Shown here piece after piece: positions 304-58,355 of a stretch of DNA of 64,000 bases. Position 1 is the first letter of the stretch. Each line of letters starts with the position of its first letter. A model generated the notes under the pieces. It saw nothing but the letters and a program-made list of their open reading frames with translations. It did not search any database and was not told the DNA's origin. Source of the DNA: a virus; IMG/VR virus record IMGVR_UViG_3300046501_000246; one strand, written 5' to 3'. Both the position numbers and the translations under genes were made by a program.

Positions 304-2295
304 ATGACAGATTTTAGACCATTCGCAAAGGCTATTCGTGCCAATTTCGACACGCTTTCGAAGCAAGAGCTTTACACCGTGAATATTTCAGGTGACGAAC
401 TTTGGGATTTCTATCTCGATTCGTTTCCGGCTGGCACAAACGAAGTGTTTCGTCAGCGCCGCGAGTATGATTGCTCGTGCTGCAAGAATTTCATGCGCAA
501 CATTGCTAACGTTGTTGCTATCGTTGACAATCAGCTTGTCTCAGTTTGGGATGTTGCTGATGTGGGTCATCCGTTCAATGTGGTTTGCGAAGCTCTTTCC
601 GACAAGGTTAAGGGCCTTGGAATCTCTAACGTCTTCCGTACCAAGGAGAATTCTTTTGGTGCCGAGATGACGCGTGATTTTGAATCCAATATCAATTGGA
701 ATCACTTCAACACGAAGATTGCTACAAAGCACATTTGCGCCGAAGTGGCTGAGTTTAAGGGTAAGAAGGCTACGGCGGCTCAGGTCTTCCGTCGGGCGCT
801 GGAAGAGCTTGATAGCGGTGCAGTTGTCACGGTGCAGGATTTGATCAAAGACGATCTTCTGTATCGAGGCACGGAACACAAGGCGGCTGTGGATGCATTC
901 GCCACGGTTCAGCGTGAGTACAACAAGCTCAATTCAGATGAAGCACGTAACATCTTCATTTGGGCCAATATCGATAGCTTTGTTACTGGTTTTCGTAACA
1001 CGGTAATTGGTACGCTGGTGCAGGACTTGACCGAAGGCAAGGATTTGGAAAAGGCAGTTGGCTCTTTCGAGACAAAGATGGCTGGCGACAATTACAAGCG
1101 TTCAAAGACTCTCATCACGCCTAACATGATTAAAGACGCGATGAAGACAATCGAGAAGTTGAACCTTGAAACGGCATTGGAGCGGCGTTTTGCTCGGATC
1201 GGTGACGTTACTGTCAACAATGTACTTTGGGTAGATAACTCAGTTGTAGGTAAGATGAAGGGTGGCATTGAGTCACTACTCATGGAAGCTGCTGTGACAA
1301 AGAAGCCTAATGTTGATAAGGCGGAAAACATCGGTATCGAGGCATTTATGGCTGACGTGGTGCCGCGCGCTAAGTCGATTGACGTTCTGGTTAAGAATGC
1401 TTTTGCCGGTAATTTCATGAGCCTTACCGCTCCGGTTCACGATGATGTTGAGCAACTTTTCAAGTGGAATAACAACTTCGGTTGGAGCTATGACGGAGAA
1501 GTTGCTGACTCTGATATCAAGGCAAAGGTGGCTAAGGCTGGCGGTAACGTAACTAACGCTGCACTGCGTATCAGCTTGGCTTGGCATAACTATGATGACT
1601 TGGATATCCATGTTATTGAACCAGATAAGACTCATATCTACTTCGGCAATCCTAGAGGTAAGCTTGATGTTGATATGAATGCTTTTGGAGCGCGCTCACG
1701 TGAGCCGGTAGAGAACATCAGCTATACCAAATCTAATCTTGTAGATGGTGTCTATATTGTCAAGGTCAATCAATATACCAGACGTGAAAACATTGATTAT
1801 GGTTTCGAACTTGAAGTGGAAAACAATGGTTCGGTTCATAATTTCAGCTATCCGAAGGCTGTTGCTGGAACGATTGGCGCGCTGAAGATCACGGTCAAGA
1901 ATGGTATTGTTGCTGCTATCGTTACCGGCGAAGGTGTTAGTGGTGGTATGATGCCGCAGGATAAATGGGGCATCAAGACTGAAACTTTCGTTCCTGTTAA
2001 CACAATCATTCTCAGCCCTAACTATTGGGATGATAATGCAACAGGTAACAAGCATTGGTTCTTTATTCTGAAGGACTGCTTGAATCCAGAACCGACTCGT
2101 GGTATTTATAACGAATTCCTCAAGTCGGGACTTGAACAGCATCGGAAGGTTTTCGAAGTGCTTGGATCAAAGACTAAGTGCGAGCCTACCGATGATCAGC
2201 TGAGCGGAATTGGTTTCAGTTCCACGAAGCGTACCGAACTACCTGTTTTGGTCAAGACCGCAACGGGCCAGAAACTTTACAACATCAACTTTTAA
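304..2295 (+). CDS. conserved phage protein with YfaP/DUF2135-like domain
   Basis: 663 aa; SD AAGGAG upstream; N-terminal YDCSCC motif; LRISLAWHNYDDLDIHVIEP...LDVDMN resembles the YfaP/DUF2135 signature (recognised by eye). Confidence 0.7.
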   Translation: MTDFRPFAKAIRANFDTLSKQELYTVNISGDELWDFYLDSFPAGTNEVFRQRREYDCSCCKNFMRNIANVVAIVDNQLVSVWDVADVGHPFNVVCEALSDKVKGLGISNVFRTKENSFGAEMTRDFESNINWNHFNTKIATKHICAEVAEFKGKKATAAQVFRRALEELDSGAVVTVQDLIKDDLLYRGTEHKAAVDAFATVQREYNKLNSDEARNIFIWANIDSFVTGFRNTVIGTLVQDLTEGKDLEKAVGSFETKMAGDNYKRSKTLITPNMIKDAMKTIEKLNLETALERRFARIGDVTVNNVLWVDNSVVGKMKGGIESLLMEAAVTKKPNVDKAENIGIEAFMADVVPRAKSIDVLVKNAFAGNFMSLTAPVHDDVEQLFKWNNNFGWSYDGEVADSDIKAKVAKAGGNVTNAALRISLAWHNYDDLDIHVIEPDKTHIYFGNPRGKLDVDMNAFGARSREPVENISYTKSNLVDGVYIVKVNQYTRRENIDYGFELEVENNGSVHNFSYPKAVAGTIGALKITVKNGIVAAIVTGEGVSGGMMPQDKWGIKTETFVPVNTIILSPNYWDDNATGNKHWFFILKDCLNPEPTRGIYNEFLKSGLEQHRKVFEVLGSKTKCEPTDDQLSGIGFSSTKRTELPVLVKTATGQKLYNINF

Positions 2296-27040: not shown

Positions 27041-29555
27041 TTAGCCATTTAAATTATCTCCATATCTATTTGATTTCTTATCGGCCCGCCCCGGTTCCGG
27101 TTCACCTTCTTTGACGTAAACGTCGTGACCCATAGCCTTCTTCTGTACCATGAAATGGTCAGCCAAGATTTTGAAATGAAAATCTGCGACCCTAACCGGT
27201 TCGTCTCGATATTGATAATATACTTTGAAAACCATGACGTGCGCCCTCCCTCTCAAACTATTTGCCAATACATTTTATTACATCGAAGATGTGATAGGTG
27301 TCAAGTCACGAATTATAACCAACTATAATCGTTTTATTCTTTAATCTTATCTTTCTTATTCAATTCATCCGCAATATCTGCTAGTCTGTTCAATTCTTCC
27401 CTCGCCTCGCCGCGCTTGAATATGGTACGCCAGCATCTTCCCCGCCGAAGCTAAGCGCTCGTCCCACGTCTCGAATTTATATTGAACATAATCCTGAGAC
27501 ACGTTCACACCGTTTTCAGTGAAAACATAGTCGCCAGTATCGAAATCAACGTCACAAGCTATGACAAAACCTGTGAAAGGAGAGGTAACTTCGGCATGAC
27601 CATCTTCATCCGCATTTGCTTTGCAGAGCAAGTCAATAGGCGTAAGATTTTTGTGATAGCGCATCTTCGAATCTCCTTTTCATACTCGGATGTACATATA
27701 TACCATTAGGAGTATAGAAAATGCAAGCCTCCATAACAAATTCAGAGCCATATCTCTTTATTAATTTTTTAAAAATACGCTTACTTCGGTGTTTAGAATA
27801 TGGAAAATTTCTCACCCAAGTTGGTTGCTGCGCTGCTTCGGTATAGTAAATTTTTAAACCATTAAATTTTTGTGCCACGCTACCGGGATAATAACCAAAA
27901 TTACTGTTCACTCGCGTCGCACTCCCTAGAGACTTCGTCAAACAGCGGCCCGCCGATGAGATGGACTATGTCACCGCCATGCGCGAAGCTAGGGCTCGTG
28001 GCTTCTGATCGGACATAGGAATAGCCGATACCGGGAACCACATCAAAAGTTTCTTCTTCCTTTTTAACTTTCAGAGCGATTTCGAGTTGGAGACAGTAGC
28101 TCCATGTCGCGCTACGTCCATCTATGTCAGAGGTATACAATCCGGGAAAGATGAAACGATTCCCCTTCTCATCAACAAACACTGGAAATTTATACACTAT
28201 TATTCTCCTTCACTGATCATAGCTCTATAGGCATAACCCATTGGTCCGCCTCCCGCGCTCGGCTCTTCTGTCGGAGACTGAGACATGATATCGCTCCGCT
28301 TCCGCCAATACGCATCATTCATTTTATTAATTTTTGTTTCACTCGGCTCAAGCGGGACAATGGCATAGCCCATCTCGTTAAGAATGTGTCGCAAGTTCCT
28401 GATATCTTTGATTTGGTACTCATCAAAAAGCCTGACAGGATTACGATGTTCTGGTAGCGTGCTCCAATGCGAGGCGAAACGATATGTTTCACCCACGCCC
28501 TCAATGTCCTCCACGGCGTAATAAGCAATAACCGTCATGCCTAGGTAGCGCTCCCCTGTCATGGCGAAGCCGTCAGTTTTTAAATCTGAGACGTGCATTT
28601 CCATAGTCACATCCCCCAAATAATATACGTCATGACAGCCAGCCATGTCACGGTTAGGCCAAGAAACGCTGTGATAAAATAAAATTTCTCTGCCGCAGTT
28701 ATGTCTCGACCTTGCGCCAGTAAGTCGTTTCTAGTCCTAGCAACGCTGTAAAACAGGAAGTATTTCGTGGCGAGACAGGCCAGAGCGATGAATTGGAGAA
28801 TTGTAACTGTCATGTAATTAAGACCTCTCAAACAAATTTCTGATGCCAAAAATTAGCGCACTTATCGCCGCAAAATCGGTAACACTGATTTCTGGCGCAT
28901 AATTTTTGTGAACCCAAGAGAATATCCACAGAGATAAAATTGTTAGCGCCACAGTCAAAATATCAAAACCAAGCTCTCTAAACATTAAATTTTTCCTTTA
29001 AACTAAATGAACTCTAAATCACTATGACGCGATTTAGAGTCCAAGTCAATCACTTTCTGTCATGCTTTGCTTAACGCGTCTCGCACCGCTTCGACCAATG
29101 TATCACCAATACCAAGCCTGTTAATATGCTTAGCAGTGACCACGAATTGATCCACTTCTTCCCAAATCACGAACTCGCCGCGATCCTCATGAAGCTCAAT
29201 TATACAACCGTTCACAACTTCGATACGAGTAAAGCTCCCGAATGAGTTGTCGCGTCCCTCCTCGTAGACGGCCTCAACCATCTCAGGTACGGTGACATAT
29301 TCATCCATAGCGTGTCTCCTTCTGCTACTCCAAGCTCATGTGACCGTTACACTCAACCAACGTTCCTATCCTACCAAGGTTCCATTCATAGTTGCCTATC
29401 CCTGTCACGACTGGTTTGCCTAGGTCGGCCATCTCTAGCCCCGCCGCTCTCAGATCAATGCTGAATTGGAGATTCGAATGTAGCCTCGCCTTGTTGCGAA
29501 TCGCGATGAATTTCCTGACATTTTTGGTGTTAAGCATCACTAATCCTTGTCCCAT
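27041..29555 (-). other. array of small hypothetical genes (part 3)
   Basis: ORFs 27041-27268, 27365-27664, 27633-27941, 27901-28197, 28200-28646, 28607-28849 (membrane), 29060-29308, 29325-29555. Confidence 0.65.
27275..27304 (-). promoter_or_regulatory. repeated early promoter
   Basis: TTGACA-N18(..GATG)-TAATAA. Confidence 0.65.
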
Positions 29556-30003
29556 CCGGCTTCAGCCTAACTCCCTCGCCCGTTCCATCGCAAGGATGAT
29601 GACCGTGCACCGCGAAATATTTATCTCTCTTAATGATTTTCCCCTTGACAAGGAATCCCCAACGAAACATTGGAGCACCAGTGATGAGAAAGGTCCACGT
29701 ATTAGGTCTGACGTTTTGAACCGAATGCATGTGATCGGCTGGCCTAAACCGAATCATTCCGGCCCGCATCCGTTCAACGTCTTTTACCAGAACAGCGTTG
29801 TCAATCGTTTCGTATGTCACATCGTCATAGCCGCCTCGTAGCACGACAGTAACGAACCAATAAGGATGATTGTGTGGATGACGGTGATCGTCATCTCCGA
29901 GCCATTGGTGAAGCCTAACGCTCCACTTCTTGAACAGGACGGCCCATAGCCGGAAATATGGACATTCGGGAAGGCCACCGGCACGGTTCCAGATGATTTT
30001 CAT
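29530..30003 (-). CDS. cupin-fold protein
   Basis: LHQW..DDDHRHPHNHPY.F.T.VL.GGY...RFRPADHMH.V cupin metal-binding motifs. Confidence 0.7.
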   Translation of the reverse strand: MKIIWNRAGGLPECPYFRLWAVLFKKWSVRLHQWLGDDDHRHPHNHPYWFVTVVLRGGYDDVTYETIDNAVLVKDVERMRAGMIRFRPADHMHSVQNVRPNTWTFLITGAPMFRWGFLVKGKIIKRDKYFAVHGHHPCDGTGEGVRLKPDGTRISDA

Positions 30004-30203
30004 GATAGTTCGACATATAGCTGAATTTCGGGATCGTCGTGCTCAAAAACAACATCAACGACCTTATATCGAACATTGTTTTTAAAGAAAGTGTTTCCTG
30101 TCTGAGGAACAACAGGTAATGCAACTGAGAAAGAATTGCCATCATTAAGATAGCACTTGAACGAAATCATCGTCATATCAACCTCCTTTAAATTTTGTCC
30201 CAA
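30000..30203 (-). CDS. hypothetical protein
   Basis: short ORF between the methyltransferase and the cupin gene. Confidence 0.5.
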   Translation of the reverse strand: MGQNLKEVDMTMISFKCYLNDGNSFSVALPVVPQTGNTFFKNNVRYKVVDVVFEHDDPEIQLYVELS

Positions 30204-30805
30204 ACCGCGATAACTGCTTCGATGTAGTTATCTCCTATCACAAACGTTTCGCGAGGTAAATGATAAAATCTTACATCAGGGAGAATCTTACAAATTTCGT
30301 CACAGTAAGTTGCATGGAGCAGGGCGACGAGACGGCCACCTTCTGCAAGTTGGTCCGCCGCATGTCTGACATGCTCGACACAATTCTTGTGCGGCGGATT
30401 CATGACGACGCGGTCGAACAGATTGTCAAAACTATATCTCAGGAAATTGGTGTTCAGACATTCCACAGACGGATATGATTCCACCAATTCAGCGAACATA
30501 GGCTTGTTAAGCTCTATCGCCGTGATGTTTTGAGCGTAGACACTAACAGCTTCCACGATAGCGCCAGTTCCAGCGCTAGGTTCAAGTACCCTGTCATGAA
30601 TTATGATATCCGCAAGCGCTGCCATATCGGCGGCGAGCCATGACGGCGTGTTCGTTGCTTGTAAATTAGTTCTTCCCTCCATTAATGGAGGAAGAATGGT
30701 CCGAGGTGAAGGATTCGAACCCCCGACACCTGTAGTTTCACCCCTTATCCCCTTCAAATCATCTCCAACATTACTTGGGCCGGTTCTTGAGTTAATTACT
30801 CTCAT
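30188..30805 (-). CDS. SAM-dependent N6/N4-type (amino) methyltransferase
   Basis: TPSWLA, VLEPSAGTGAI (motif I), VVMNPPH (motif IV variant); start either 30805 (SD AAGGA, inside the tRNA-like RNA) or 30682 (no SD). Confidence 0.8.
   Translation of the reverse strand: MRVINSRTGPSNVGDDLKGIRGETTGVGGSNPSPRTILPPLMEGRTNLQATNTPSWLAADMAALADIIIHDRVLEPSAGTGAIVEAVSVYAQNITAIELNKPMFAELVESYPSVECLNTNFLRYSFDNLFDRVVMNPPHKNCVEHVRHAADQLAEGGRLVALLHATYCDEICKILPDVRFYHLPRETFVIGDNYIEAVIAVWDKI
30670..30696 (-). other. hairpin directly after the CCA of tRNA-like RNA B
   Basis: TTCTTCCTCCATT/AATGGAGGGAAGAA near-perfect palindrome, no U-tract; sequesters GGAGG and contains ATG 30682. Confidence 0.6.
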
Positions 30806-30920
30806 TACTTCATTCCTTTCATGTTATCGACTCATCTCAGGTTCAATTCACTTCTATCGGTGATCAAGCCAGTCGAAATGAATCAGGCTCACAGTGCTCT
30901 ACCAGCTGAGCTAACCCCGG
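30697..30920 (-). ncRNA. tRNA-like RNA B (224 nt) with a 155-nt insert replacing the anticodon loop
   Basis: acceptor CCGGGGT/ACCTCGG-A-CCA; D arm GCTC-AGCTGGTA-GAGC; anticodon stem CTGTG/TACAG; insert 30889-30735; T arm GGGGG-TTCGAAT-CCTTC. Confidence 0.85.
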
Positions 30921-31075
30921 CAATGTGTCTGTCTTTCCAGACTGCCAAATCCCCGGAACCGTCCGGTCCTGCGGCATGTGCCGCTTCGGTAGGGACTTGA
31001 ACCCTACTTTTCCTTACCAAACCTCGATTAGCGAGCCGGAATTGAACCGGCGTTACTCGTAGCCTTTCGGCAAAC
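30921..31075 (-). ncRNA. structured 155-nt linker with two extra T-arms and GNRA/T-loop-like hairpins
   Basis: GCC-GAAA-GGC; GCCGG-TTCAATT-CCGGC (31051-31035); GTAGGG-TTCAAGT-CCCTAC (31007-30989); GCGGC-ACAT-GCCGC; GTCTG-GAAAGA-CAGAC (30942-30927). Confidence 0.7.
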
Positions 31076-31325
31076 TGGTCCAAGAGAATGGATTCGAACC
31101 ACCAGCCCCCACGTTTTCTACCCAATCCTTTTCAATTTTACTGACGCGGTACTAAGTCTTTTTCATGAGTTGATCTGACCCACTACTTAATCCTGTTCTG
31201 CGGCAGTATCCTATCCAATTCTATTTAGTGTCGTAACACGATTTGCCACATCGTTACACTAAATCAGGTCGTGGTGCTCTACCTGCTACCTTTTGACACA
31301 AGGCATACTTTGGAGCTACTCTTGG
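31076..31325 (-). ncRNA. tRNA-like RNA A (250 nt) with a 156-nt insert replacing the anticodon loop and an enlarged D loop
   Basis: acceptor CCAAGAG/CTCTTGG-A-CCA; D stem GCTC/GAGC around a 33-nt loop; anticodon stem CCACG/CGTGG; insert 31269-31114; T arm GGTGG-TTCGAAT-CCATT. Confidence 0.85.
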
Positions 31326-31375
31326 TTAAACTTCTTCAACAACAGTTGAGGAAGATTTAGTTATCTTGTTATTCC

Positions 31376-31404
31376 TATCTAAGACATTCCGTATCAAATG
31401 TCAA
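31376..31404 (-). promoter_or_regulatory. probable promoter of the tRNA-like array
   Basis: TTGACA-N17-TAGATA about 50 nt upstream of RNA A; leader hairpin at 31331-31354. Confidence 0.6.
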
Positions 31405-37920: not shown

Positions 37921-38666
37921 TTATCTTTCAAACCCTCGCCATTTACTGGATTACATGTAGCACTCAACAAATGAGGATAAATTTCCCAATTGCGCATCAG
38001 GAGCTTTAACCTGAAGCCGTATGACGTTGTGGTGCAGATATTAAGGCCGGGGGGAACGGTGGCACTGACATAATCGCTGTAGAACAGACCATGGCTATGC
38101 ATCAAGCTCCACAGGTGGTTGAACAGCGTCCCTTCGATTCTAAAATAGATGGTGTCATTCTCATCCAACGGTAGGCGTGTCGCGCCTTGCACTGAGTGAA
38201 TGTTATTTTCCGAATCAATTTCTTGACTATTGTGCAAGTAAATTTTTTCATTGACTTTTGCGGTCAAACCATAACTCACCGCCTCACCGGCAAAGAATAT
38301 CATGGGCCACAGGAAGAACCAGACAAAGATCACTGAACCAGTGAGAAGCATCCCGGCCCTCACCTTGGAGAACCGGAGATTTTCAAATTCGTCACGCTGA
38401 TACACGACAAGGCTCCAAAGGCGTCTGTACTGCTTCAGGAGCTTCCAGAACGGCCAACGAACAACTTTCCATGTCGGAATACCAACGTTCCAGAACGACC
38501 ACTGGCACGCCGCTACGACCTGAAGAATGAACCTGTGGAACATGTTCAAATCTTCCGACATGCGCTCGACGCGAGATTCCGATTTTACCTTGGCCCTGTC
38601 TAGCTCAATTTTTTCCTGAGTCTCGCGAGCCCTGCGCATTTGCTCAAGAAGATCATTGTCAGCCAT
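37917..38666 (-). CDS. membrane protein (possible DUF1523-like C-terminus)
   Basis: hydrophobic segments GMLLTGSVIFVWFFLWPMIFF; C-terminal SYGFRLKLL...IYP; coupled to the AAA gene by TAATG. Confidence 0.65.
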   Translation of the reverse strand: MADNDLLEQMRRARETQEKIELDRAKVKSESRVERMSEDLNMFHRFILQVVAACQWSFWNVGIPTWKVVRWPFWKLLKQYRRLWSLVVYQRDEFENLRFSKVRAGMLLTGSVIFVWFFLWPMIFFAGEAVSYGLTAKVNEKIYLHNSQEIDSENNIHSVQGATRLPLDENDTIYFRIEGTLFNHLWSLMHSHGLFYSDYVSATVPPGLNICTTTSYGFRLKLLMRNWEIYPHLLSATCNPVNGEGLKDK

Positions 38667-40663
38667 TATTGCTCCTTCTCCACCTTAAATGATTTTGTTT
38701 CAGTATCATACTTTACAGAGAGATTACCTGTAAAGCCATCGATGGCAAAATCAGCGAAAATAGGCTCAAGATTGGTTTCGATGTATCCCGGCAAGCCGCG
38801 AGCCCCAATGACAGGGTCATAGTGATCGGCGCAGAAATTCGTGATCGTTTGTCCCTGAATAGTGATAACAATCCCTTCCTCGCCATAGACGCCAGAAATT
38901 TTATTAATTTCGCGCATAACAATATGTTCGATATGTTCCACTTCAAGCTTTCTGAAGCAAACAATGTTCTCACGGCCCGCAAATCTGTTAAGGAATTCAG
39001 GACGATAGGTATTGTTTAGGTCTTCATACGCAAGAGTTTCAGCCTCCTCCCACGTCAATTCCTCATTGAGGAAATGGGGCTGACCAATATTCGTTGTCAT
39101 GATAATGATGGAATCTGCGAACGATACGGTACGGCCCAAGTTATCAGTGAGACGCCCATCAGAAAGAATCTGAAGGAAGAGATTGAAAATCTGAGGATCA
39201 GCCTTTTCAATTTCATCGAAGAGAAGAATCTGATTAGGATTGGTTCGCATCAAGTTGGTCAAAACACCACCAGCCTCAGCCAGTTCATAGCCGGGAGGCG
39301 CACCGATAAGCTTTGCCACGGCATGCTTTTCCGAGTATTCCGACATGTCGAAGCGAGCCAGCGATTTCTCACTACCTAGGAGGATTGAGGCCAAAGCCTT
39401 TGCAATTTCGGTTTTACCAACGCCAGATGGACCGAGAAACATGAACGAAGCTTGCGGAGATTCCTTATTACGACGCACGGCGCGAGCCACTTTGACCGCA
39501 TTTGCCAACTTACCAACGGCCTGTGCTTGCCCGAAGATACGCTGACCCAAAGCGTTCTCAAGACCCTTCAGCTTTTCACGCTCGTTTTCATTAAGCTTCG
39601 ACGCCGCAATTCCTGAAATCGTGGAAAATTCTTCCGTCACCATTTCTTTCGTCAAGCGTAGATCGGCATTAATTTGAAGTTTTAACTTATCAAATTCTGC
39701 CTTATTCGCATCAACTACTTTTTGGAATTCTTTAATAGTTTTGCGAAGTTCCATAACGGCGGGAGGCTCAATCCCGATATTGAAACTGTCGCCCTTGTCC
39801 TTGATTTCCTTCAGCTTTTGCTCAATATTTTCTTCAAGATTGGCGATTTCGATTTCGCCGTCTCTTTTGTTTTTATTAAATTCTCGTAGCTTTGCAGAAA
39901 CAGTTTCGTCTAGACCGGCGTGAGCCTTGAGACGATAACTGGCAAGTGCACGATCCAGAAGTGTGACGCTACGCTCTGGCTGAGCACGGCTGAGACCCGG
40001 ATCGCGGGTACGATATTTGTTCGTAAGTGTAATCGCCTCAAGAATAGCGTCATCGTTGATTACAATCTCGTGATACTTTGACAGACCTTCAGCTGTCTTC
40101 GTGACGATTTCATGAAGCGCCTCTTTGACAGGCTCAATCACGTCCATCATTGTGAAACATTCCTTCAGGTCACTATGAACCCTCATGACAGTTTCAGCAT
40201 CTTCGTCGCGCGTTTCAAAGATAACCTGAGTCAGGTTCCGCTTAACGGACGACATTAGGTCATTAATGAAATGAACCGCGCCATTGTTACGGCAAGCCTC
40301 AATGAAATCACGCGTATCTTCGATGATCAGAATAGAATCAGGCGTCTTTTCGAGACGAGCCATGATCTTTCGGAAATCTTCACTCGTCTTGTTGGAATCG
40401 CCGGATGAGAAAAGACCATCGGTATCTAGCCAGAACAATCGCTTCGCCACGATATCAAATGGCGCGTCTGGATCAGCCTTCCTCATCTGAAGTCCAAGGC
40501 ACAGCGCGGTAATACCTACACCACCGGGACCGACAAGCACGACAGAGTTAGCCGCGCTGCGCATCAAAATAGCGCTGAGCCGGTCCAAGTCGTGATTTCG
40601 ACCCACGAGATTGAATCCTACGTGCTGTGCCAGATATTCAGAACCACGAATCAGGTAATCCAA
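38666..40663 (-). CDS. ClpA/ClpB-family AAA+ ATPase, no N-domain, first AAA module degenerate
   Basis: D2 intact (GPSGVGKT, DMSEY, LIGAPPGY, LLFDEIEKA, RPEFLNR, GARGL); D1 Walker A GPGGVGIT and Walker B IIED. Confidence 0.88.
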   Translation of the reverse strand: MDYLIRGSEYLAQHVGFNLVGRNHDLDRLSAILMRSAANSVVLVGPGGVGITALCLGLQMRKADPDAPFDIVAKRLFWLDTDGLFSSGDSNKTSEDFRKIMARLEKTPDSILIIEDTRDFIEACRNNGAVHFINDLMSSVKRNLTQVIFETRDEDAETVMRVHSDLKECFTMMDVIEPVKEALHEIVTKTAEGLSKYHEIVINDDAILEAITLTNKYRTRDPGLSRAQPERSVTLLDRALASYRLKAHAGLDETVSAKLREFNKNKRDGEIEIANLEENIEQKLKEIKDKGDSFNIGIEPPAVMELRKTIKEFQKVVDANKAEFDKLKLQINADLRLTKEMVTEEFSTISGIAASKLNENEREKLKGLENALGQRIFGQAQAVGKLANAVKVARAVRRNKESPQASFMFLGPSGVGKTEIAKALASILLGSEKSLARFDMSEYSEKHAVAKLIGAPPGYELAEAGGVLTNLMRTNPNQILLFDEIEKADPQIFNLFLQILSDGRLTDNLGRTVSFADSIIIMTTNIGQPHFLNEELTWEEAETLAYEDLNNTYRPEFLNRFAGRENIVCFRKLEVEHIEHIVMREINKISGVYGEEGIVITIQGQTITNFCADHYDPVIGARGLPGYIETNLEPIFADFAIDGFTGNLSVKYDTETKSFKVEKEQ

Positions 40664-40744: not shown

Positions 40745-42391
40745 TTAAATCTTGAATGATGCGTTTTCGGCAGGCTTGGGCTCTTCCGGCTTCTCAACCT
40801 TGATCGAAGAGTGGACCGCAGCGTTATCCTTGACCGCATCCTGAACCGACGAAGCGATTTCGCGGATCGCGACAAGGTTCTGTTCAAGCTCAGCTACGTT
40901 TTCGCGGGTGATTTCGGTAGCCTTCTGAACCACCTCACCATATGCACCAAGGTCTTCCATGGCTTTGACAAGTTCGTCATTCACATCACCCGTTGCCAGA
41001 GCGACACGCATGCTTTCCTTCATCGCGATTTCGTTCGTCGCATCGCTCATCTGAACCATTGTGTCACGCGCAATGGCAGAGCTTTCAGCGATTGCGGCTT
41101 GACCCACGGCCTGAAGCACGACAGAAAGTCGATCAGCGACACCAGCGACACCTTGGGTATGCATCTTGCGCACCTTTTCGACCTGAGACGAGTTGGCATC
41201 TGCCATGGTCTTGATACGCACGGACTGAGACGAAAGATCGGCAAAGGTCGTTTCGGTATCGACGGCAGAACTGGACAAGACAGTGAGATGATCGTCAATG
41301 TCGCGAAGTTCGTTGTCGCGCTTCATCTTTGTGATCATCGATTCTTCTTCGGCAGGGGTCGCAAGAGTTTCGCGCTTCGTCTTGATTTCCGAGCCAGCTT
41401 CCTTAATGCCTTCACCTAGAATGGCATATGCAGAAATCATGGACTGGTTCGCATCGGTAAGATTGTCGATTTGCTCACCCATGCCGCTAAGACTACCGCG
41501 AATACCACCGAGAGCAGACTTAGAAACTTCAACGAATTTCTTAGCCTTTTCAACAGTGTTAGCTGAATTCCGCTGATGTTCTTCCGCCGAAAGGTCAAGC
41601 ATGGCGCGGATCGTTGCCTTGGCCTTGCCAAATTCCGAGTCATCTGCCACAGAGACCGGAGCTTGAGCCGAGACAGTTGTCAGTTCCTGTTCCAGCCTGA
41701 TAAGATTGTCCTTGGCCTGAATGATAGAAATTTCATTCAGTGCAATCTTTTCGCGCGAAGACTGGCGAATCCCAAGCAGGCCGAACAGAGCTTTGTCTTC
41801 GCTGAGTCGTGCATTTTCGTTGGTCAACTCATCGATTAGCTGCTGCGTTGATGTGAAACGCTGTTTGATATTTTCGACCTTTAGATTATATTCCGTTTCA
41901 ACGCTGCGGTCGTTACGGATATCGGAGAAGATTTCATTCGTCTTCCCTTCTTTGCGCACCACGTGCATAGCATTAATGATTCCAAGAATTGGCTCCATCG
42001 CTTCATTGAATTCGATCAGGCCGTCATTCATTGTGGTATAAACTTGCTGAAGCTGCGCCGTTGTGTTGGTATTGGTCACATCGATGATGTTACCAGCCAT
42101 TTGCTCGCGCTTAAGCTGAAGGAATTCCTTGAATTCATCCAGAGCCTTAATCGTAGCCTTGTTTTCTTCCTTCGTACCAACGGTAGCAAGCGTTTTCGCT
42201 ACTGCTTTCTGCTTATCTTCGGGTGAAAGAGCAGGATCGAGCACGATCTTATAGAACGTGTTCGTTGCAATATTTTCGGCGCGGGTATCTTTTGCCGTTT
42301 CGGTCTGAACCGTCTTAGCCTTGACGCCGGTAATTTCCGCGATTCGTGCCTGACGTGCTTCCTTAAGCTTTGCTGCTCCAAAATCACTCAT
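40745..42391 (-). CDS. long all-helical coiled-coil protein
   Basis: 548 aa, heptad-rich, Cys- and Trp-free, with short hydrophobic stretches (ALFGLLGI, VLQAVGQAAIA). Confidence 0.75.
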   Translation of the reverse strand: MSDFGAAKLKEARQARIAEITGVKAKTVQTETAKDTRAENIATNTFYKIVLDPALSPEDKQKAVAKTLATVGTKEENKATIKALDEFKEFLQLKREQMAGNIIDVTNTNTTAQLQQVYTTMNDGLIEFNEAMEPILGIINAMHVVRKEGKTNEIFSDIRNDRSVETEYNLKVENIKQRFTSTQQLIDELTNENARLSEDKALFGLLGIRQSSREKIALNEISIIQAKDNLIRLEQELTTVSAQAPVSVADDSEFGKAKATIRAMLDLSAEEHQRNSANTVEKAKKFVEVSKSALGGIRGSLSGMGEQIDNLTDANQSMISAYAILGEGIKEAGSEIKTKRETLATPAEEESMITKMKRDNELRDIDDHLTVLSSSAVDTETTFADLSSQSVRIKTMADANSSQVEKVRKMHTQGVAGVADRLSVVLQAVGQAAIAESSAIARDTMVQMSDATNEIAMKESMRVALATGDVNDELVKAMEDLGAYGEVVQKATEITRENVAELEQNLVAIREIASSVQDAVKDNAAVHSSIKVEKPEEPKPAENASFKI

Positions 42392-43409
42392 AAATTTTCT
42401 CCTTTAGTTCGTTAACTTTCATCTTCTGCCCATGCATCCAATGTTTCGTGGTCTGTATATGACCTTTTCTTACACACTTTGCAACATATTTTTTGAATTC
42501 CCCGAAAGAAAATTCACTTGCAGTCCGAACGACATAACCTTCATGATCGTCCCACGATAAGACTATGTTTTTAATGAGTTTTTCGTCATATACGCCTCGG
42601 TACAGAGTAGGCACTGGAACAATGTTTAAAAGTTTAAACCATTCCAAAGTCTCATCCCACGAAAGGCAAACATTTTTATCGTTCCAGATAGAGAAGCCGT
42701 AAAAATAAGTTTCGAGATTATCGTAACCGATGGAGTGCTTGGCAAAGAGGTTTTCACCGCATACTCTCCAACGCTCAGGAATGTCTATGGCAATGGAACT
42801 CCAAAAGTTTTTAACCCAATTGCGACTAGGATGATTTCGACCATCAAGACTTCTGGCGTGAATATAATCATTATAAAGCGTAGTGTTTTCGCCATCCATT
42901 TTCTCTGTTACAACAACTTCCATACCGCTGAAAGCGGTCATGTCTTTCAACATTCTGTCATCCTCATTCATCCCCGGTGACCAAGGAACATGAGTCGTGC
43001 GAGGATATTTGACATAATGGGTGAACAATGGGAGCTTATCATGTAGAATCTTTTGAACCGATTCATCAAAGAAAAGCTCTCCGATCAACCTAGTTCCGTT
43101 AGGCAGGATAGGATTTCCCCATTTGTCGTAGACCTGATCGTCATAGAAATGTTCAGGGATAACTTTCTTTGTGATCCCCGCGTATCCCCTGATTTCTTCC
43201 ACCGAAATGTCTGTAGCCTCACAAGCGATGTGATGGATTCCACAGACGCTGGCACCATTTTCTAAGTAGTAACCACCCTCGGCAAACAATCTGCGTTCTA
43301 AGATGTGATGAGCATCAAGTTTTCCGCCTATTCCGCATACGACACAGCGATGACCATCTCTGGCAAAGACGCCTTCTCTGAAATCATCTCGTGTCAAAAG
43401 CTTAGCCAC
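42384..43409 (-). CDS. RNA ligase (Rnl2-like nucleotidyltransferase) with N-terminal HNH-like domain
   Basis: KYPRTTHVPWSPG, TEKMDGEN (motif I), CGENL, FYGFSIW, EGYVVR, AKCVR; N-terminal CVVC..DAHHI..N...C..HH. Confidence 0.88.
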   Translation of the reverse strand: MAKLLTRDDFREGVFARDGHRCVVCGIGGKLDAHHILERRLFAEGGYYLENGASVCGIHHIACEATDISVEEIRGYAGITKKVIPEHFYDDQVYDKWGNPILPNGTRLIGELFFDESVQKILHDKLPLFTHYVKYPRTTHVPWSPGMNEDDRMLKDMTAFSGMEVVVTEKMDGENTTLYNDYIHARSLDGRNHPSRNWVKNFWSSIAIDIPERWRVCGENLFAKHSIGYDNLETYFYGFSIWNDKNVCLSWDETLEWFKLLNIVPVPTLYRGVYDEKLIKNIVLSWDDHEGYVVRTASEFSFGEFKKYVAKCVRKGHIQTTKHWMHGQKMKVNELKEKIYE

Positions 43410-43736
43410 TTAATCTGCCTCCGTTGGATATTTAAAATTCATGTATCCGTCTAGATATTCGTGAATGTTTGCCGCCCCGATAGGATTTTGACTATGGACG
43501 TACCACTCAAAATCTTCTCCGATCACTGTTCCGCCCCGATCTTCGTCTAGATCAACAAGATACTTGGCACACTCGTAACCGTCAAGACTATCGTCACCCA
43601 AGTCATGGTCAAAGCTGATAAAATTGATAGGCTCCTTGGCATAAAGAAGCGCATCAACGAATTCACCATAGCTCCTCACAATGACAAAGTCACGATAGTT
43701 TGCAGGAAGCCGTTCGTCATCAAGAAAAATATTCAT
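43410..43736 (-). CDS. cyclic-phosphate-processing receiver-domain protein
   Basis: IFLDDER...ISFDHDLG...GYECAKYL...VHSQNPIGA. Confidence 0.75.
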   Translation of the reverse strand: MNIFLDDERLPANYRDFVIVRSYGEFVDALLYAKEPINFISFDHDLGDDSLDGYECAKYLVDLDEDRGGTVIGEDFEWYVHSQNPIGAANIHEYLDGYMNFKYPTEAD

Positions 43737-55983: not shown

Positions 55984-57370
55984 TCTATCTAGAACAAAGG
56001 AGGGTGTTATGAAATTTCTAATAATTTATGGCCTTATCGCTTTTGGGACGTGGGCCGGATATGACAGAATTTATAGAGAAGCTTGCCCGTCAGAAAAGTT
56101 TTCATACGGGCCGGTCATGGCAGGGATTGTGTGGCCCTTCTTCGCCGGTCTAGCAATTACTAGCGCCACGACCGATAGAATTTCAAAACCAGTCACATGC
56201 GGAAATCTTTTTTAAAAGGAGGAATGTCATGCGTTTGAATAAAAAATGGACCACGGCGCATCTCCTGAATGTTGCCCTATCATCTCCCAAGTTCAGCGCT
56301 GATGTGAATTCCGGTGAAGATGTAATTTCCGTTGACGTTGATAAAAACACAGGCTTCGTGACTTGGTGGCATAATTATGTCAGAGTTACGGAAGGCGATA
56401 TTGCGAATGTATTGGCTCGATGGGCCGTGGAAGGAGTTTAAATTTTATGACAAGAGACGAAGTTAAAGCGAATCGAATCAAGTGGGCCAATTTCCTTCTA
56501 AATAAAAAGAGGAAGAAAGCTATTAGTGTTCTTGATAAAGGCGACGGTGCTAGATGCTGCTTAGGTCATGGCGCGTATTGCTTAGGCGTGCCGCGCCGCA
56601 ACATAGTTAATGGACTGGATAATGCGTGTTTCGAATATGGAGATGAGGACGCAGCATATTCCGCTCCTTCTGAATTGGTAGAGCTTGTCGGACTGTGGGA
56701 CAGTGATGGCATGACTGAAGGCGAGGATTTAGTTATTAATGGTCTTAACTTTTCTTCATTAGCTGGTGCCAATGATGCTGATAGACATTATGCCTTTGAA
56801 ACAGGCGTTGAAAGCAGCGAAATAAACATCACTCCTCAAATGATTGGGACATATCTCCTCACCGTGATCGAAGGCGGCGATGACACTCCGTTTCGCCCAC
56901 TGTCGGAGTACCCTGAATGAGCGCTGGTAAAGCATCGATTTGCCATTGGGATTTGAGGGCCAGATTCTTCACCAAAGAACAAGCCGTTAAAGCTATTAAA
57001 CTTTTACTTGAGGAAGATATTGATTTCGATATTGCGTATTCAGTTGAAATGGGTGATAGTCTGAATCGAACTGCTTATATCATCGATATTGACGGAATGT
57101 CTTGGGCCAATAATCTTGAAACCGTGGCACAAATTTTAAAAGAAGTAGATCACAAATATGAATGAGTCTGAGCTACGCGAAAAGATTATTAAAGTTTTAG
57201 GACCAGAGCTATATGGCGCGTATGACTGCATCCGAGTTTGGGAAGCTTGGTCATATGGTACGATGAGTCAGGATGATTTTGTTCCAGTTGAAGATCGGCT
57301 AGGCGAGATTGCTGAGAGCTTATTAAAGGAGATTTTGGGTGACAACTACGACGGGACTGACAGTAATTAG
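55955..57370 (+). other. small hypothetical genes between pnuC and the NadR-like gene
   Basis: ORFs 55955-56215 (start likely MKFLII), 56229-56441, 56420-56920 (CCLG motif), 56917-57165, 57158-57370. Confidence 0.6.
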
Positions 57371-58355
57371 CGGCTTGCTTCCAACTCGTGGTCATCAATA
57401 TCTAATTGATTTTGCATCTAAATTCGTTGATCGACTCCACGTCATAGTCTGTATCAGATCGTTTGAGCCTCGTCTCACGCTGGATCGTGCCGAAGTTTTA
57501 GCAAAACATTATGCCGGTACGAATGTAACAGTTCATGAGCATTACGCCGACGATGCGCCTCAAAATGACGATGGCACGACGGAGTTTTGGGACTATTGGG
57601 CCAATCTTGTAGATAAAGCCGTCACTAAACGCAAAAAGATTGATTATTTCTTCGCCTCTGAAAAGTATGGCGCTCGATTTGCTGAAGCTCTTGGCGTCAC
57701 TTTTGTTCCTGTCGATATTGGCAGGGAAATCCTGAGCGTCACAGGAACGCGTGTGAGACAAAATCTCGCTGAGAATTTTAAATATATCCTCCCCGAATAC
57801 CAAGGCAAATTGGCAAAAACGGTTTGCCTCTACGGACAAGAATCGGTAGGCAAAACCACAATGTCAAAGTGGCTCGCCACGAAGCTTGAAGGCCGTTGGA
57901 TTCATGAATGGGCCAGACCTTATCTTGAAGAAGTCGGCGCTGAAGTCACGGATGAAAAAATGTTAAACATTGTGCGTGGTCAGTACGCTGTCATGGTTTC
58001 CGCACCTACTGCATTGTTTAATATAAGAGATACTGATCTCCTTTCAACCATTGGATATTATAAAATCTACGGCGGTAAAATGCCTGAAGAACTTATCCAA
58101 AAATTTAACTTGACAAAAAGCGATCTTTATGTAATGTTAAATGACAATATCCCTTTCGAGCCCGATCCTTTGAGATATGGCGGAGATAAGAGGGAAAGTG
58201 AGATGCAGTTCTGGATCGACCTTCTGGACGAATATGACTGCAAATATCATGTCGTGGAAAGCACTGACATTAAGAAACAGCGCAAAGAAGTTGTAGAAGC
58301 TGTTTACGATTTTTTCACTGATCTACGAGAGATAGAGGAATTCATTCGTGACTGA
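57339..58355 (+). CDS. nadR: NadR-like bifunctional NMN adenylyltransferase / ribosylnicotinamide kinase (no HTH)
   Basis: N-terminal LPTRGH (HIGH-like), FFASEKYG, VTGTRVR; C-terminal GQESVGKTT, HEWARPY, RDTDLL.T, PFEPDPLRYG. Confidence 0.85.
   Translation: MTTTTGLTVISGLLPTRGHQYLIDFASKFVDRLHVIVCIRSFEPRLTLDRAEVLAKHYAGTNVTVHEHYADDAPQNDDGTTEFWDYWANLVDKAVTKRKKIDYFFASEKYGARFAEALGVTFVPVDIGREILSVTGTRVRQNLAENFKYILPEYQGKLAKTVCLYGQESVGKTTMSKWLATKLEGRWIHEWARPYLEEVGAEVTDEKMLNIVRGQYAVMVSAPTALFNIRDTDLLSTIGYYKIYGGKMPEELIQKFNLTKSDLYVMLNDNIPFEPDPLRYGGDKRESEMQFWIDLLDEYDCKYHVVESTDIKKQRKEVVEAVYDFFTDLREIEEFIRD

Follow-up and report, generated by a model that had tools for sequence, protein, structure and literature searches.

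Introduction

Mimicry of tRNA is known from the genome ends of plant viruses, from transfer-messenger RNA (tmRNA), and from Y RNAs. The Escherichia coli thrS operator is a tRNA-mimic translational operator bound by threonyl-tRNA synthetase, and in HEARO/omega RNA systems, a structured RNA lies upstream of the IscB gene and overlaps it. The nearest case in the literature to the elements described here is that of the "enigmatic" tRNA introns of the Lak megaphages, the splicing of which was assumed rather than shown (Devoto et al. 2019, PMC6784885). Here, we describe two tRNA-Phe-shaped RNAs, A (31076–31325, minus strand; 250 nucleotides [nt]) and B (30697–30920, minus strand; 224 nt), in a 64,000-nt stretch of DNA (the window) from the IMG/VR phage record IMGVR_UViG_3300046501_000246, a genome of 119.6 kb estimated to be 65% complete. 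The original prediction for this region, made from the letters alone, proposed two complete tRNA frameworks with 156 and 155 nt in the anticodon loop, and our direct reading of the minus strand agreed with it. That prediction mentioned neither the overlap of RNA B with the start of a methyltransferase gene nor the methyltransferase–cupin module to which both RNAs belong. Within a strictly conserved RNA–methyltransferase–cupin module, the RNA or RNAs come first, and no description of such a family was found in the literature that we searched.

Conservation and covariation of the tRNA-framed RNAs

The family was too diverged in DNA to be found by nucleotide similarity. A blastn search of the region against 50,697 phage records gave no match, and the sole close relative at the DNA level was locus L002, with approximately 90% identity. 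No relatives were found when the neighboring protein of 195 amino acids (aa) was used as an anchor. Three DNA-pattern scans of the viral collection, based on motifs common to A and B, recovered only L002 and chance matches, and a single scan of metagenome DNA recovered only two chance matches. The family was instead reached via the methyltransferase gene directly downstream of B, the homologues of which lie on contigs that carry a similar RNA immediately upstream, an RNA that the frames drawn by the gene caller often extend over. In this way, and with a profile search that yielded a further lineage (L117), 18 homologous copies with inserts of 136–207 nt were collected from 11 loci. In Rhizobium phage RHph_Y1_11, the RNA lies inside a coding sequence annotated as a "DNA methyltransferase", and in Caulobacter phages CcrPW and CcrColossus, two tandem copies occupy an unannotated 670-bp gap.

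The 18-sequence alignment (A5) established that A and B are conserved, structured, tRNA-framed RNAs, far beyond chance, as the original prediction had proposed for the window alone. In this alignment, 96.9% of the cells in the four tRNA helices were paired, compensatory double changes were observed in 14 of the 20 cloverleaf pairs, and none of 500 shuffles matched the observed pairing and covariation values, with slid-partner controls giving pairing of only 33–50%. The design was kept from phages with 44% GC to the GC-rich Caulobacter phages. RNAalifold recovered the cloverleaf, the first insert hairpin, and the small hairpin at the start codon de novo from the five B-type copies; a four-sequence run, which gave a non-cloverleaf fold, was set aside for the 5- and 18-sequence analyses. 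Minimum-free-energy z-scores were weak on their own (A, −2.1; B, +0.4).

The inserts also showed signs of selected structure. The helix that closes the insert, CC(N)(N)/(N)(N)GG, covaries among the copies (CCUG/UGGG, CCA/UGG, CCGC/GCGG, CCGU/ACGG, and CCGGG/CCUGG), and is typically flanked by one unpaired nucleotide on the 5′ side and, on the 3′ side, by two nucleotides, GAA, and two more. Between the window and L002, all substitutions in the insert helices were compensatory or G-U compatible. In the insert of RNA A, double changes affected the first hairpin as well as the second, where they fell in the outer helix (UACUG/CAGUA to CAUUG/CAAUG); no change was disruptive. The 9-bp stem that the original prediction had placed at the insert start was likewise kept in L002, by one double change and G-U-compatible changes. 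The sequence motif that it had reported as shared by the two inserts, GTC(A)GAT(C)AAC(TC)ATGAAA, did not stand, because it joins non-homologous positions; the segment of A in fact aligns with ...TAATTAACTCAAGAA... of B.

Several positions were constant or nearly so. GAA in the register of the Phe anticodon, as predicted, and A73–CCA were invariant in all 18 copies, and C1–G72 was present in 17; the CCA was retained even where it does not code, as in CcrPW and CcrColossus. The G18G19 and TTCRA elements were conserved, except for the A copy of L099, which lacks GG. The D arm and the GUGUC variable loop also resemble those of tRNA-Phe, and the synthetase identity elements G34, A35, A36, A73, U20, and G10 were conserved. 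Position 33 is nearly universally U in real tRNAs; among the 18 copies, it was U in 11, A in five, and C in two. No long frame is present in the A-type copies or in either CcrPW copy, yet these keep the fold.

Architecture of the RNAs and their promoter region

Direct reading of RNA A revealed a complete cloverleaf. It consists of an acceptor stem (CCAAGAG/CTCTTGG, 31325–31319/31086–31080), U8 and A9, a D stem (GCTC/GAGC, 31316–31313/31279–31276), an anticodon stem (CCACG/CGTGG, 31274–31270/31113–31109), a 5-nt variable loop, a T arm (GGTGG-TTCGAAT-CCATT, 31103–31087), A73 (31079), and an encoded CCA (31078–31076), all on the minus strand. The D loop is extended to 33 nt (31312–31280) and contains a hairpin that covaries among the copies of the window, L098, and L099. 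The 156-nt insert (31114–31269) between the anticodon-stem strands is composed, in order, of a 9-bp hairpin with an inner 5-bp hairpin, a long irregular hairpin, and a tail in which GAA (31118–31116) is followed by AA. Its coding content is one short GUG-initiated frame of six codons.

RNA B, on the same strand, is also a complete cloverleaf, with an acceptor stem (CCGGGGT/ACCTCGG, 30920–30914/30707–30701), U8 and A9, a normal D arm (30911–30896) with the same GCTC/GAGC stem, an anticodon stem (CTGTG/TACAG, 30894–30890/30734–30730), the variable loop GTGTC (GUGUC in the RNA, 30729–30725), a T arm (GGGGG-TTCGAAT-CCTTC, 30724–30708), A73 (30700), and an encoded CCA (30699–30697). The closing helix of its 155-nt insert (30735–30889) is accompanied by a 9-bp hairpin, the loop of which is UUGAUCA, and by a long irregular one; in the tail, GAA (30739–30737) is followed by AC.

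The inserts are also rich in GAUC, which occurred 20 times against an expectation of 9.6 and in 16 of the 18 family members; because the copies are related, this excess does not amount to a formal test. GAUC often lies within a palindromic (U/C)UGAUCA in hairpin loops (e.g., 30862–30868 and 31172–31178, minus strand), and the loop UUGAUCACC occupies the same place in the B copy of the window and in RHph_Y1_11. These loops could be kissing-loop or protein sites, and pairing of copies A and B through the recurring palindromic UGAUCA loops is a more speculative possibility. In L099, a GCGA tetraloop takes the place of the hairpin loop GUGNCAA, which led us to reject the idea that loops of this form are extra anticodon loops. 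Inspection by eye alone suggested AGUA/GAA loop-E-like pairs in the long hairpin, and we make no claim for them.

A candidate sigma-70-like promoter was located 5′ of RNA A (31376–31404, minus strand), with a −35 hexamer TTGACA (31404–31399), a 17-nt spacer, and a −10 hexamer TAGATA (31381–31376). A regular-expression search identified TTGAC(A/G)-N17-TAnnnn 5′ of the first RNA copy at 10 of 12 loci, and no terminator separates the RNA from the downstream enzyme genes. The interval between the promoter and RNA A contains a leader hairpin (31331–31354, minus strand; the tool listed the stem–loop on the plus strand), the equivalent of which sits in the A–B spacer in L002. The A–B spacer of the window (30921–31075, minus strand; 155 nt) is specific to this genome and contains two orphan T-arm-like hairpins (GCCGG-TTCAATT-CCGGC and TAGGG-TTCAAGT-CCCTA) with short acceptor-like extensions, together with several small GC hairpins, whereas the spacers of relatives are 39–42 nt and lack the orphan hairpins. 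One spacer hairpin had a weak mascRNA-like match in Rfam (E = 0.73).

The RNA–methyltransferase–cupin module

The module consists of a tRNA-Phe body bearing an insert, directly followed by a small methyltransferase with the motifs TP.WLA...NPPH and then by a cupin. The methyltransferase of the window (30188–30805, minus strand; 205 aa) is a small S-adenosylmethionine-dependent amino-methyltransferase. Its conserved core begins at approximately 30652 and bears motifs X (TPSWLA), I (EPSAGTG), and IV (NPPH). Its best, though weak, scores were to RNA amino-methyltransferases such as Erm, KsgA, and RsmD. When its sequence was compared with solved structures, only generic Rossmann-fold matches were obtained, the best of which was a phospholipid N-methyltransferase (E = 0.003).

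The cupin protein (29530–30003, minus strand; 157 aa) is cysteine-dioxygenase-like, contains the His-rich motif HRHPHNHP...H.H, and is 51–77% identical to the proteins encoded at the corresponding position in L099, L102, and CcrPW. It matched phrog_4786, "cysteine dioxygenase" (E = 1.6e-33). Its predicted fold is that of a cupin (mean predicted local distance difference test score, 79), and its nearest structural neighbors include the cysteine dioxygenase of Bacillus subtilis, ergothioneine dioxygenase, and 3-mercaptopropionate dioxygenase. Between the two enzyme genes, a small gene of approximately 56 aa (30000–30170, minus strand) is found in the window clade only; it is weakly conserved, with counterparts of 30–34% identity at the corresponding position of L099 and L095, and the loci of alphaproteobacterial phages lack it.

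The linkage between the RNA and the cupin was strict among the loci fetched. All 18 loci with a cupin match carry the RNA, and the sole RNA-bearing locus without such a match is a 981-bp contig that ends after the methyltransferase. Conversely, the cupin was matched in none of the 75 RNA-less methyltransferase loci. In these RNA-less relatives, the methyltransferase domain is preceded by a protein N-terminal region instead; in L121 (241–1971), it forms the C-terminal part of a 576-aa protein, and the giant DarB-like proteins (>2,600 aa) of Vibrio and Shewanella phages contain it internally.

Overlap of the RNA with the methyltransferase gene

The methyltransferase frame of the window starts inside insert B, with the conserved Shine–Dalgarno sequence AAGGA at 30818–30814 and the AUG at 30805–30803 (minus strand). 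From there, it runs through the 3′ strand of the anticodon stem, the variable loop, the T arm, the 3′ strand of the acceptor stem, and the CCA, which is read as Thr. The U and G of the AUG are paired in a small conserved hairpin of the insert. Throughout the window clade, GAAAGGA-N8-AUG is conserved inside the insert, and the distance from the AUG to the CCA is 109 nt in all five B-type copies. More widely, the ACC of the CCA falls within the methyltransferase frame at nine of 10 loci, with linkers of 30, 42, 60, or 69 nt, always a multiple of three, and the CCA of L117 is likewise in frame. Five loci have no in-frame start codon downstream of the CCA, and the peptide that follows the CCA, TNLPAT.TP.WLA, is conserved with synonymous variation. 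Codon-position bias between the AUG and the CCA was suggestive in the window clade (0/3/7 and 3/9/11) and absent between L095 and L098 (7/7/7), and thus provides weak support only.

In most lineages, the ribosome-binding site and start codon of the methyltransferase lie within the insert of the last copy; in L102 and L104, they take the form GGAG-N5-UUG at the insert end. The position of the start is not uniform. RHph_Y1_11 has a strong AGGAGG-ATG upstream of the entire RNA, whereas the CcrPW methyltransferase has its own AGGAGG-ATG, 25 nt downstream of the RNA and out of frame with it. The overlap of gene and RNA is thus common but not universal, and the fold is kept with or without it.

Methyltransferase gene models of 239–240 aa that extend over the whole RNA occur in L105 (1746–2465; MN988558, EVC30_106), L102 (2501–3223), and L104 (1084–1803). 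Those of L102 and L104 were rejected as gene-caller artefacts and are probably too long, because the chosen ATG sits inside the promoter spacer, between the −35 and −10 hexamers.

Detection by tRNA finders and RNA family models

As had been anticipated, these RNAs escape standard annotation. ARAGORN called no tRNA in the window at its default settings; the three ordinary tRNAs of the genome, all of which lie outside the window, were detected. In its intron-aware mode, ARAGORN called RNA B a tRNA-Phe(GAA) with a 148-nt "intron" at position 32, and it assigned 11 of the 14 non-A copies to tRNA-Phe(GAA), placing the insert at 32/33. With Rfam 15, the window had no match at the gathering score and, even at E < 10, none to tRNA, tmRNA, group I intron, YrlA, GOLLD, or ROOL, in line with the expectation that no described family would cover these RNAs; eight further loci also lacked a family match.

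Comparison of the copies with the defining features of known classes gave a similar picture. The cloverleaf and the elbow formed by the D and T loops are those of a decoding tRNA-Phe, but the uninterrupted 7-nt loop with U33 and detection by the standard models are lacking. For tmRNA, pair 3–70 is G-C or A-U rather than G3–U70, the D stem is invariant, the frame in B enters the methyltransferase, and no tmRNA was called, so the suggestion of a tmRNA-like hybrid was not supported. The termini form an acceptor stem with CCA and no YrlA match was obtained in Rfam, which separates these RNAs from YrlA, although the Ro60 gene was not searched for.

The inserts, which consist of two or three hairpins, also lack the features of known introns. 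A group I intron, a class that in bacterial tRNAs measures approximately 200 nt or more, is very unlikely, because no model matched (the Intron_gpI model gave nothing at E < 0.1 on eight further loci), because the 5′ splice site has no conserved U (the nucleotide after the 5′ strand of the anticodon stem is A, G, or U, followed by CC), and because there is no room for a P3–P9 core. The protein-spliced tRNA introns of archaea and eukaryotes have a bulge-helix-bulge and usually lie at 37/38. Here, the insert is at 32/33, and its junctions are opposed at the foot of a single helix, with 1 nt to one side of the helix and 7 nt to the other. No match to an EndA-like splicing endonuclease was found among the subset of window proteins scanned. 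The proposal of a simple protein-spliced intron also fails to account for the ribosome-binding site and start of the next gene inside the "intron", or for the frame that crosses the "3′ exon".

Interpretation of the RNAs and alternative explanations

We favor the reading, to which we assign a probability of roughly 0.45, that A and B are paralogous, non-decoding, unspliced mimics of tRNA-Phe that would constitute the RNA component of the phage methyltransferase–cupin module. Every RNA keeps the full L-shaped tRNA body and the encoded A73–CCA, the structured domain of 136–207 nt exits the anticodon loop between nucleotides 32 and 33 via the short covarying helix, and G34–A35–A36 remain in the single-stranded 3′ segment. 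The tRNA frame would recruit host tRNA enzymes, and RNase P and 3′ trimming would yield a stable, CCA-ended RNA. Charging by phenylalanyl-tRNA synthetase (PheRS) would be likely because GAA, A73, and U20 are retained, and ribosomal decoding would be excluded because position 33 is variable and the insert bulky. The methyltransferase and the cupin may then use the mature RNA as a substrate, cofactor, or carrier. Given the overlap, a single transcript would be unable to serve both the maturation of its last RNA copy and methyltransferase synthesis: a cut at the CCA would destroy the message, a translating ribosome would unfold the tRNA, and each transcript would produce either the enzyme or mature RNA B, with the upstream copy A, which lacks a long frame, supplying RNA constitutively. 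A released, CCA-ended RNA is favored because A73–CCA and GAA are invariant even where they are non-coding, because non-coding copies keep the fold, and because the position of the start codon relative to the fold is not fixed; such an RNA is probably chargeable. Processing, charging, and contact between the enzymes and the RNA are what we infer from these sequence comparisons.

Several observations weigh against this reading. Maturation of B at its CCA would cut the methyltransferase message, a circumstance that a purely cis-acting element fits at least as well; a downstream start such as that of CcrPW would avoid the cut, yet most lineages do not have one. In PHROGs, the methyltransferase domain type is annotated as a DNA methyltransferase, and large DarB-like proteins also contain it. 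Five of the 18 copies have G at position 37, which makes a fixed A37 target unlikely. The promoter call derives from our own regular-expression search, and a stricter consensus scan by a tool listed no promoter there. A more specific proposal appears doubtful: the RNA would be released by tRNA processing, receive Phe from host PheRS, and serve outside the ribosome as a dedicated aminoacyl carrier or substrate, with the methyltransferase and cupin acting on the RNA or on its amino acid. If true, it would amount to a phage-encoded, tRNA-dependent modification pathway in which competition between maturation and translation of the same transcript sets the balance of RNA and enzyme.

The main rival is a purely cis-acting operator or leader, in which the tRNA mimic would stay in the operon mRNA and control the translation or stability of the methyltransferase–cupin message, either because an enzyme whose true substrate is host tRNA-Phe binds its own leader, as at thrS, or because RNase P cleaves the leader. 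We consider this somewhat unlikely. In its favor, the ribosome-binding site and the start codon, with its paired U and G, lie in the insert; the frame is maintained through the 3′ half of the tRNA at nine of 10 loci, five loci having no downstream start; the interval between RNA and gene has no terminator; and the best scores of the methyltransferase, weak as they are, are to RNA amino-methyltransferases. However, the start codon changes place among lineages, being in the insert, in the 3′ strand of the anticodon stem, upstream of the RNA (RHph_Y1_11), or 25 nt downstream with AGGAGG (CcrPW), and the upstream A copies keep their fold at approximately 400 nt from the start codon and without a long frame. 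An operator should not need an A73–CCA that is invariant even where it is non-coding, nor a GAA that is invariant while its loop neighbors vary. The RNAs might instead act as decoys or sponges, tRNA-Phe look-alikes that absorb a host tRNA-targeting defense nuclease, PheRS, EF-Tu, or RNase P and are only loosely related to the enzymes. Retention of the tRNA shape and the anticodon bases without decoding ability is consistent with this, and the RNA ligase and cREC protein of the phage, an RNA-repair pair, suggest a conflict over RNA cleavage; but that pair is 11 kb from the RNAs, a decoy would not need a structured insert of 136–207 nt with a conserved closing helix, and such a role would not explain why distant phages so strictly combine the RNA with both the methyltransferase and the cupin. 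We regard a decoy role as improbable.

Slightly less probable again is the view that the inserts are a new type of intron in tRNA-Phe genes, the removal of which, by an unknown ribozyme or by phage or host proteins together with the RNA ligase of the phage, would leave a decoding tRNA-Phe(GAA). Besides the intron-aware calls for 11 of the 14 non-A copies, this view gains from the fact that dropping the closing helix and one flanking nucleotide leaves a 7-nt loop (AUGAAAA in several copies), from the presence of an RNA ligase with an HNH domain adjoining a cREC domain, and from the unexplained tRNA "introns" of the Lak megaphages (PMC6784885). Against it, the spliced product would have A or C at position 33 in seven of the 18 copies, and copy A would retain a 25-nt hairpin in its D loop. 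These two points, the absence of a bulge-helix-bulge geometry, and a gene start inside the "intron", with the gene continuing through the "3′ exon", make a protein-spliced intron unlikely; the lack of group I matches (E < 10 in the window and E < 0.1 at the eight further loci) and of a conserved splice-site U speaks against a ribozyme of that kind. The last possibility is that of decaying tRNA pseudogenes with random insertions, which the original prediction had named among the outcomes that would overturn it, or of a chance resemblance. It can draw on the minimum free energy of B, which is no better than that of shuffled sequence, but is refuted by the cloverleaf covariation of the 18 copies, with compensatory changes in all stems and in insert helices and a design that persists across the wide range of GC contents noted above, and its probability is close to nil.

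Other features of the genome

The RNA-repair pair lies at 42384–43736 (minus strand) of the window. The RNA-ligase protein (341 aa) has an HNH-like N-terminal region and an RNA_ligase domain (PF09414, E = 1.9e-31; phrog_24030), and the adjoining cREC_REC protein (108 aa) has a cyclic-phosphate-processing receiver domain (PF20274, E = 2.9e-22). Outside the window, a 98-nt tRNA-like element was observed beside tRNA-Met at approximately 817–914 (minus strand) of L094, which corresponds to 92530–92627 of genome C1. It has an acceptor stem (CTACACG/CGTGTAG), a perfect T arm, and GCCA, with an aberrant middle, and was not called by ARAGORN even in intron-aware mode. tRNA-Leu, tRNA-Lys, and the next gene are set apart by long non-coding stretches. 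The window also encodes a ClpB/Hsp100-like two-ring ATPase (38666–40663, minus strand; AAA_2, E = 7.8e-51) and a NadR-like nicotinamide-nucleotide adenylyltransferase/kinase (57339–58355, plus strand; TIGR01526, E = 1e-40).

Comparison with known systems

Whatever the mechanism, these elements would add an RNA family to the catalogues and lead to corrected gene models. The RNA is invisible to standard annotation, being hidden under the methyltransferase gene in RHph_Y1_11 and in a featureless 670-bp stretch in CcrPW and CcrColossus. They may also reveal a new phage use of the host tRNA machinery. Because phages of this family and their hosts are cultured and genetically tractable, excision, charging, modification, and the competition with translation are directly testable.

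As described, the Lak introns resemble the present family in that phage tRNA genes are interrupted by a conserved sequence, intron-aware settings are needed for detection, and no Rfam class applies; neither a methyltransferase–cupin linkage nor a gene start within the insert was reported for them (PMC6784885). Like tmRNA (SsrA), the phage RNA has a tRNA-like body with an acceptor and T arm, and its anticodon region is expanded into a large structured domain with a reading frame. However, it lacks G3–U70, has an intact D stem, and is not called as tmRNA by ARAGORN or Rfam, and its frame has a ribosome-binding site and an AUG and exits via the 3′ half of the tRNA into an enzyme of 150 aa. As the phage RNA would be, the aminoacylatable tRNA-like structures of plant RNA viruses, such as the Val-type structure of turnip yellow mosaic virus and its relatives, are viral mimics that bear synthetase identity elements and do not decode (PMC7749636). 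Those structures are pseudoknotted 3′ ends of RNA genomes (PMC7749636), whereas the phage family is part of a transcript of a DNA phage, folds as a true cloverleaf with a large insert, and has its CCA encoded.

The thrS operator resembles the phage RNA in being a tRNA-like structure that adjoins or overlaps a ribosome-binding site, there that of a gene whose product binds tRNA. The thrS-type operator, however, mimics anticodon arms only and lies in the 5′ untranslated region, whereas the phage RNA is a whole tRNA with CCA, is often present in two copies, and is partly translated. With HEARO/omega RNA, it shares a conserved structure and a position just upstream of a gene that it overlaps, the product of which has no target-recognition part of its own; its scaffold is instead a tRNA, its partners are a methyltransferase and a cupin rather than a nuclease, and a guide function has no support. 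The engineered tRNA scaffolds of Ponchon and Dardel also carry a cargo in the anticodon arm and rely on host processing for a stable product (PMC3753655). They are artificial, and the anticodon stem–loop is replaced in them (PMC3753655), whereas the anticodon stem and GAA of the phage RNAs are retained and conserved. The present design is unlike known tRNA mimicry: a full cloverleaf bears a large conserved domain, merges with the start of an enzyme gene, and always occurs with the same two enzymes.

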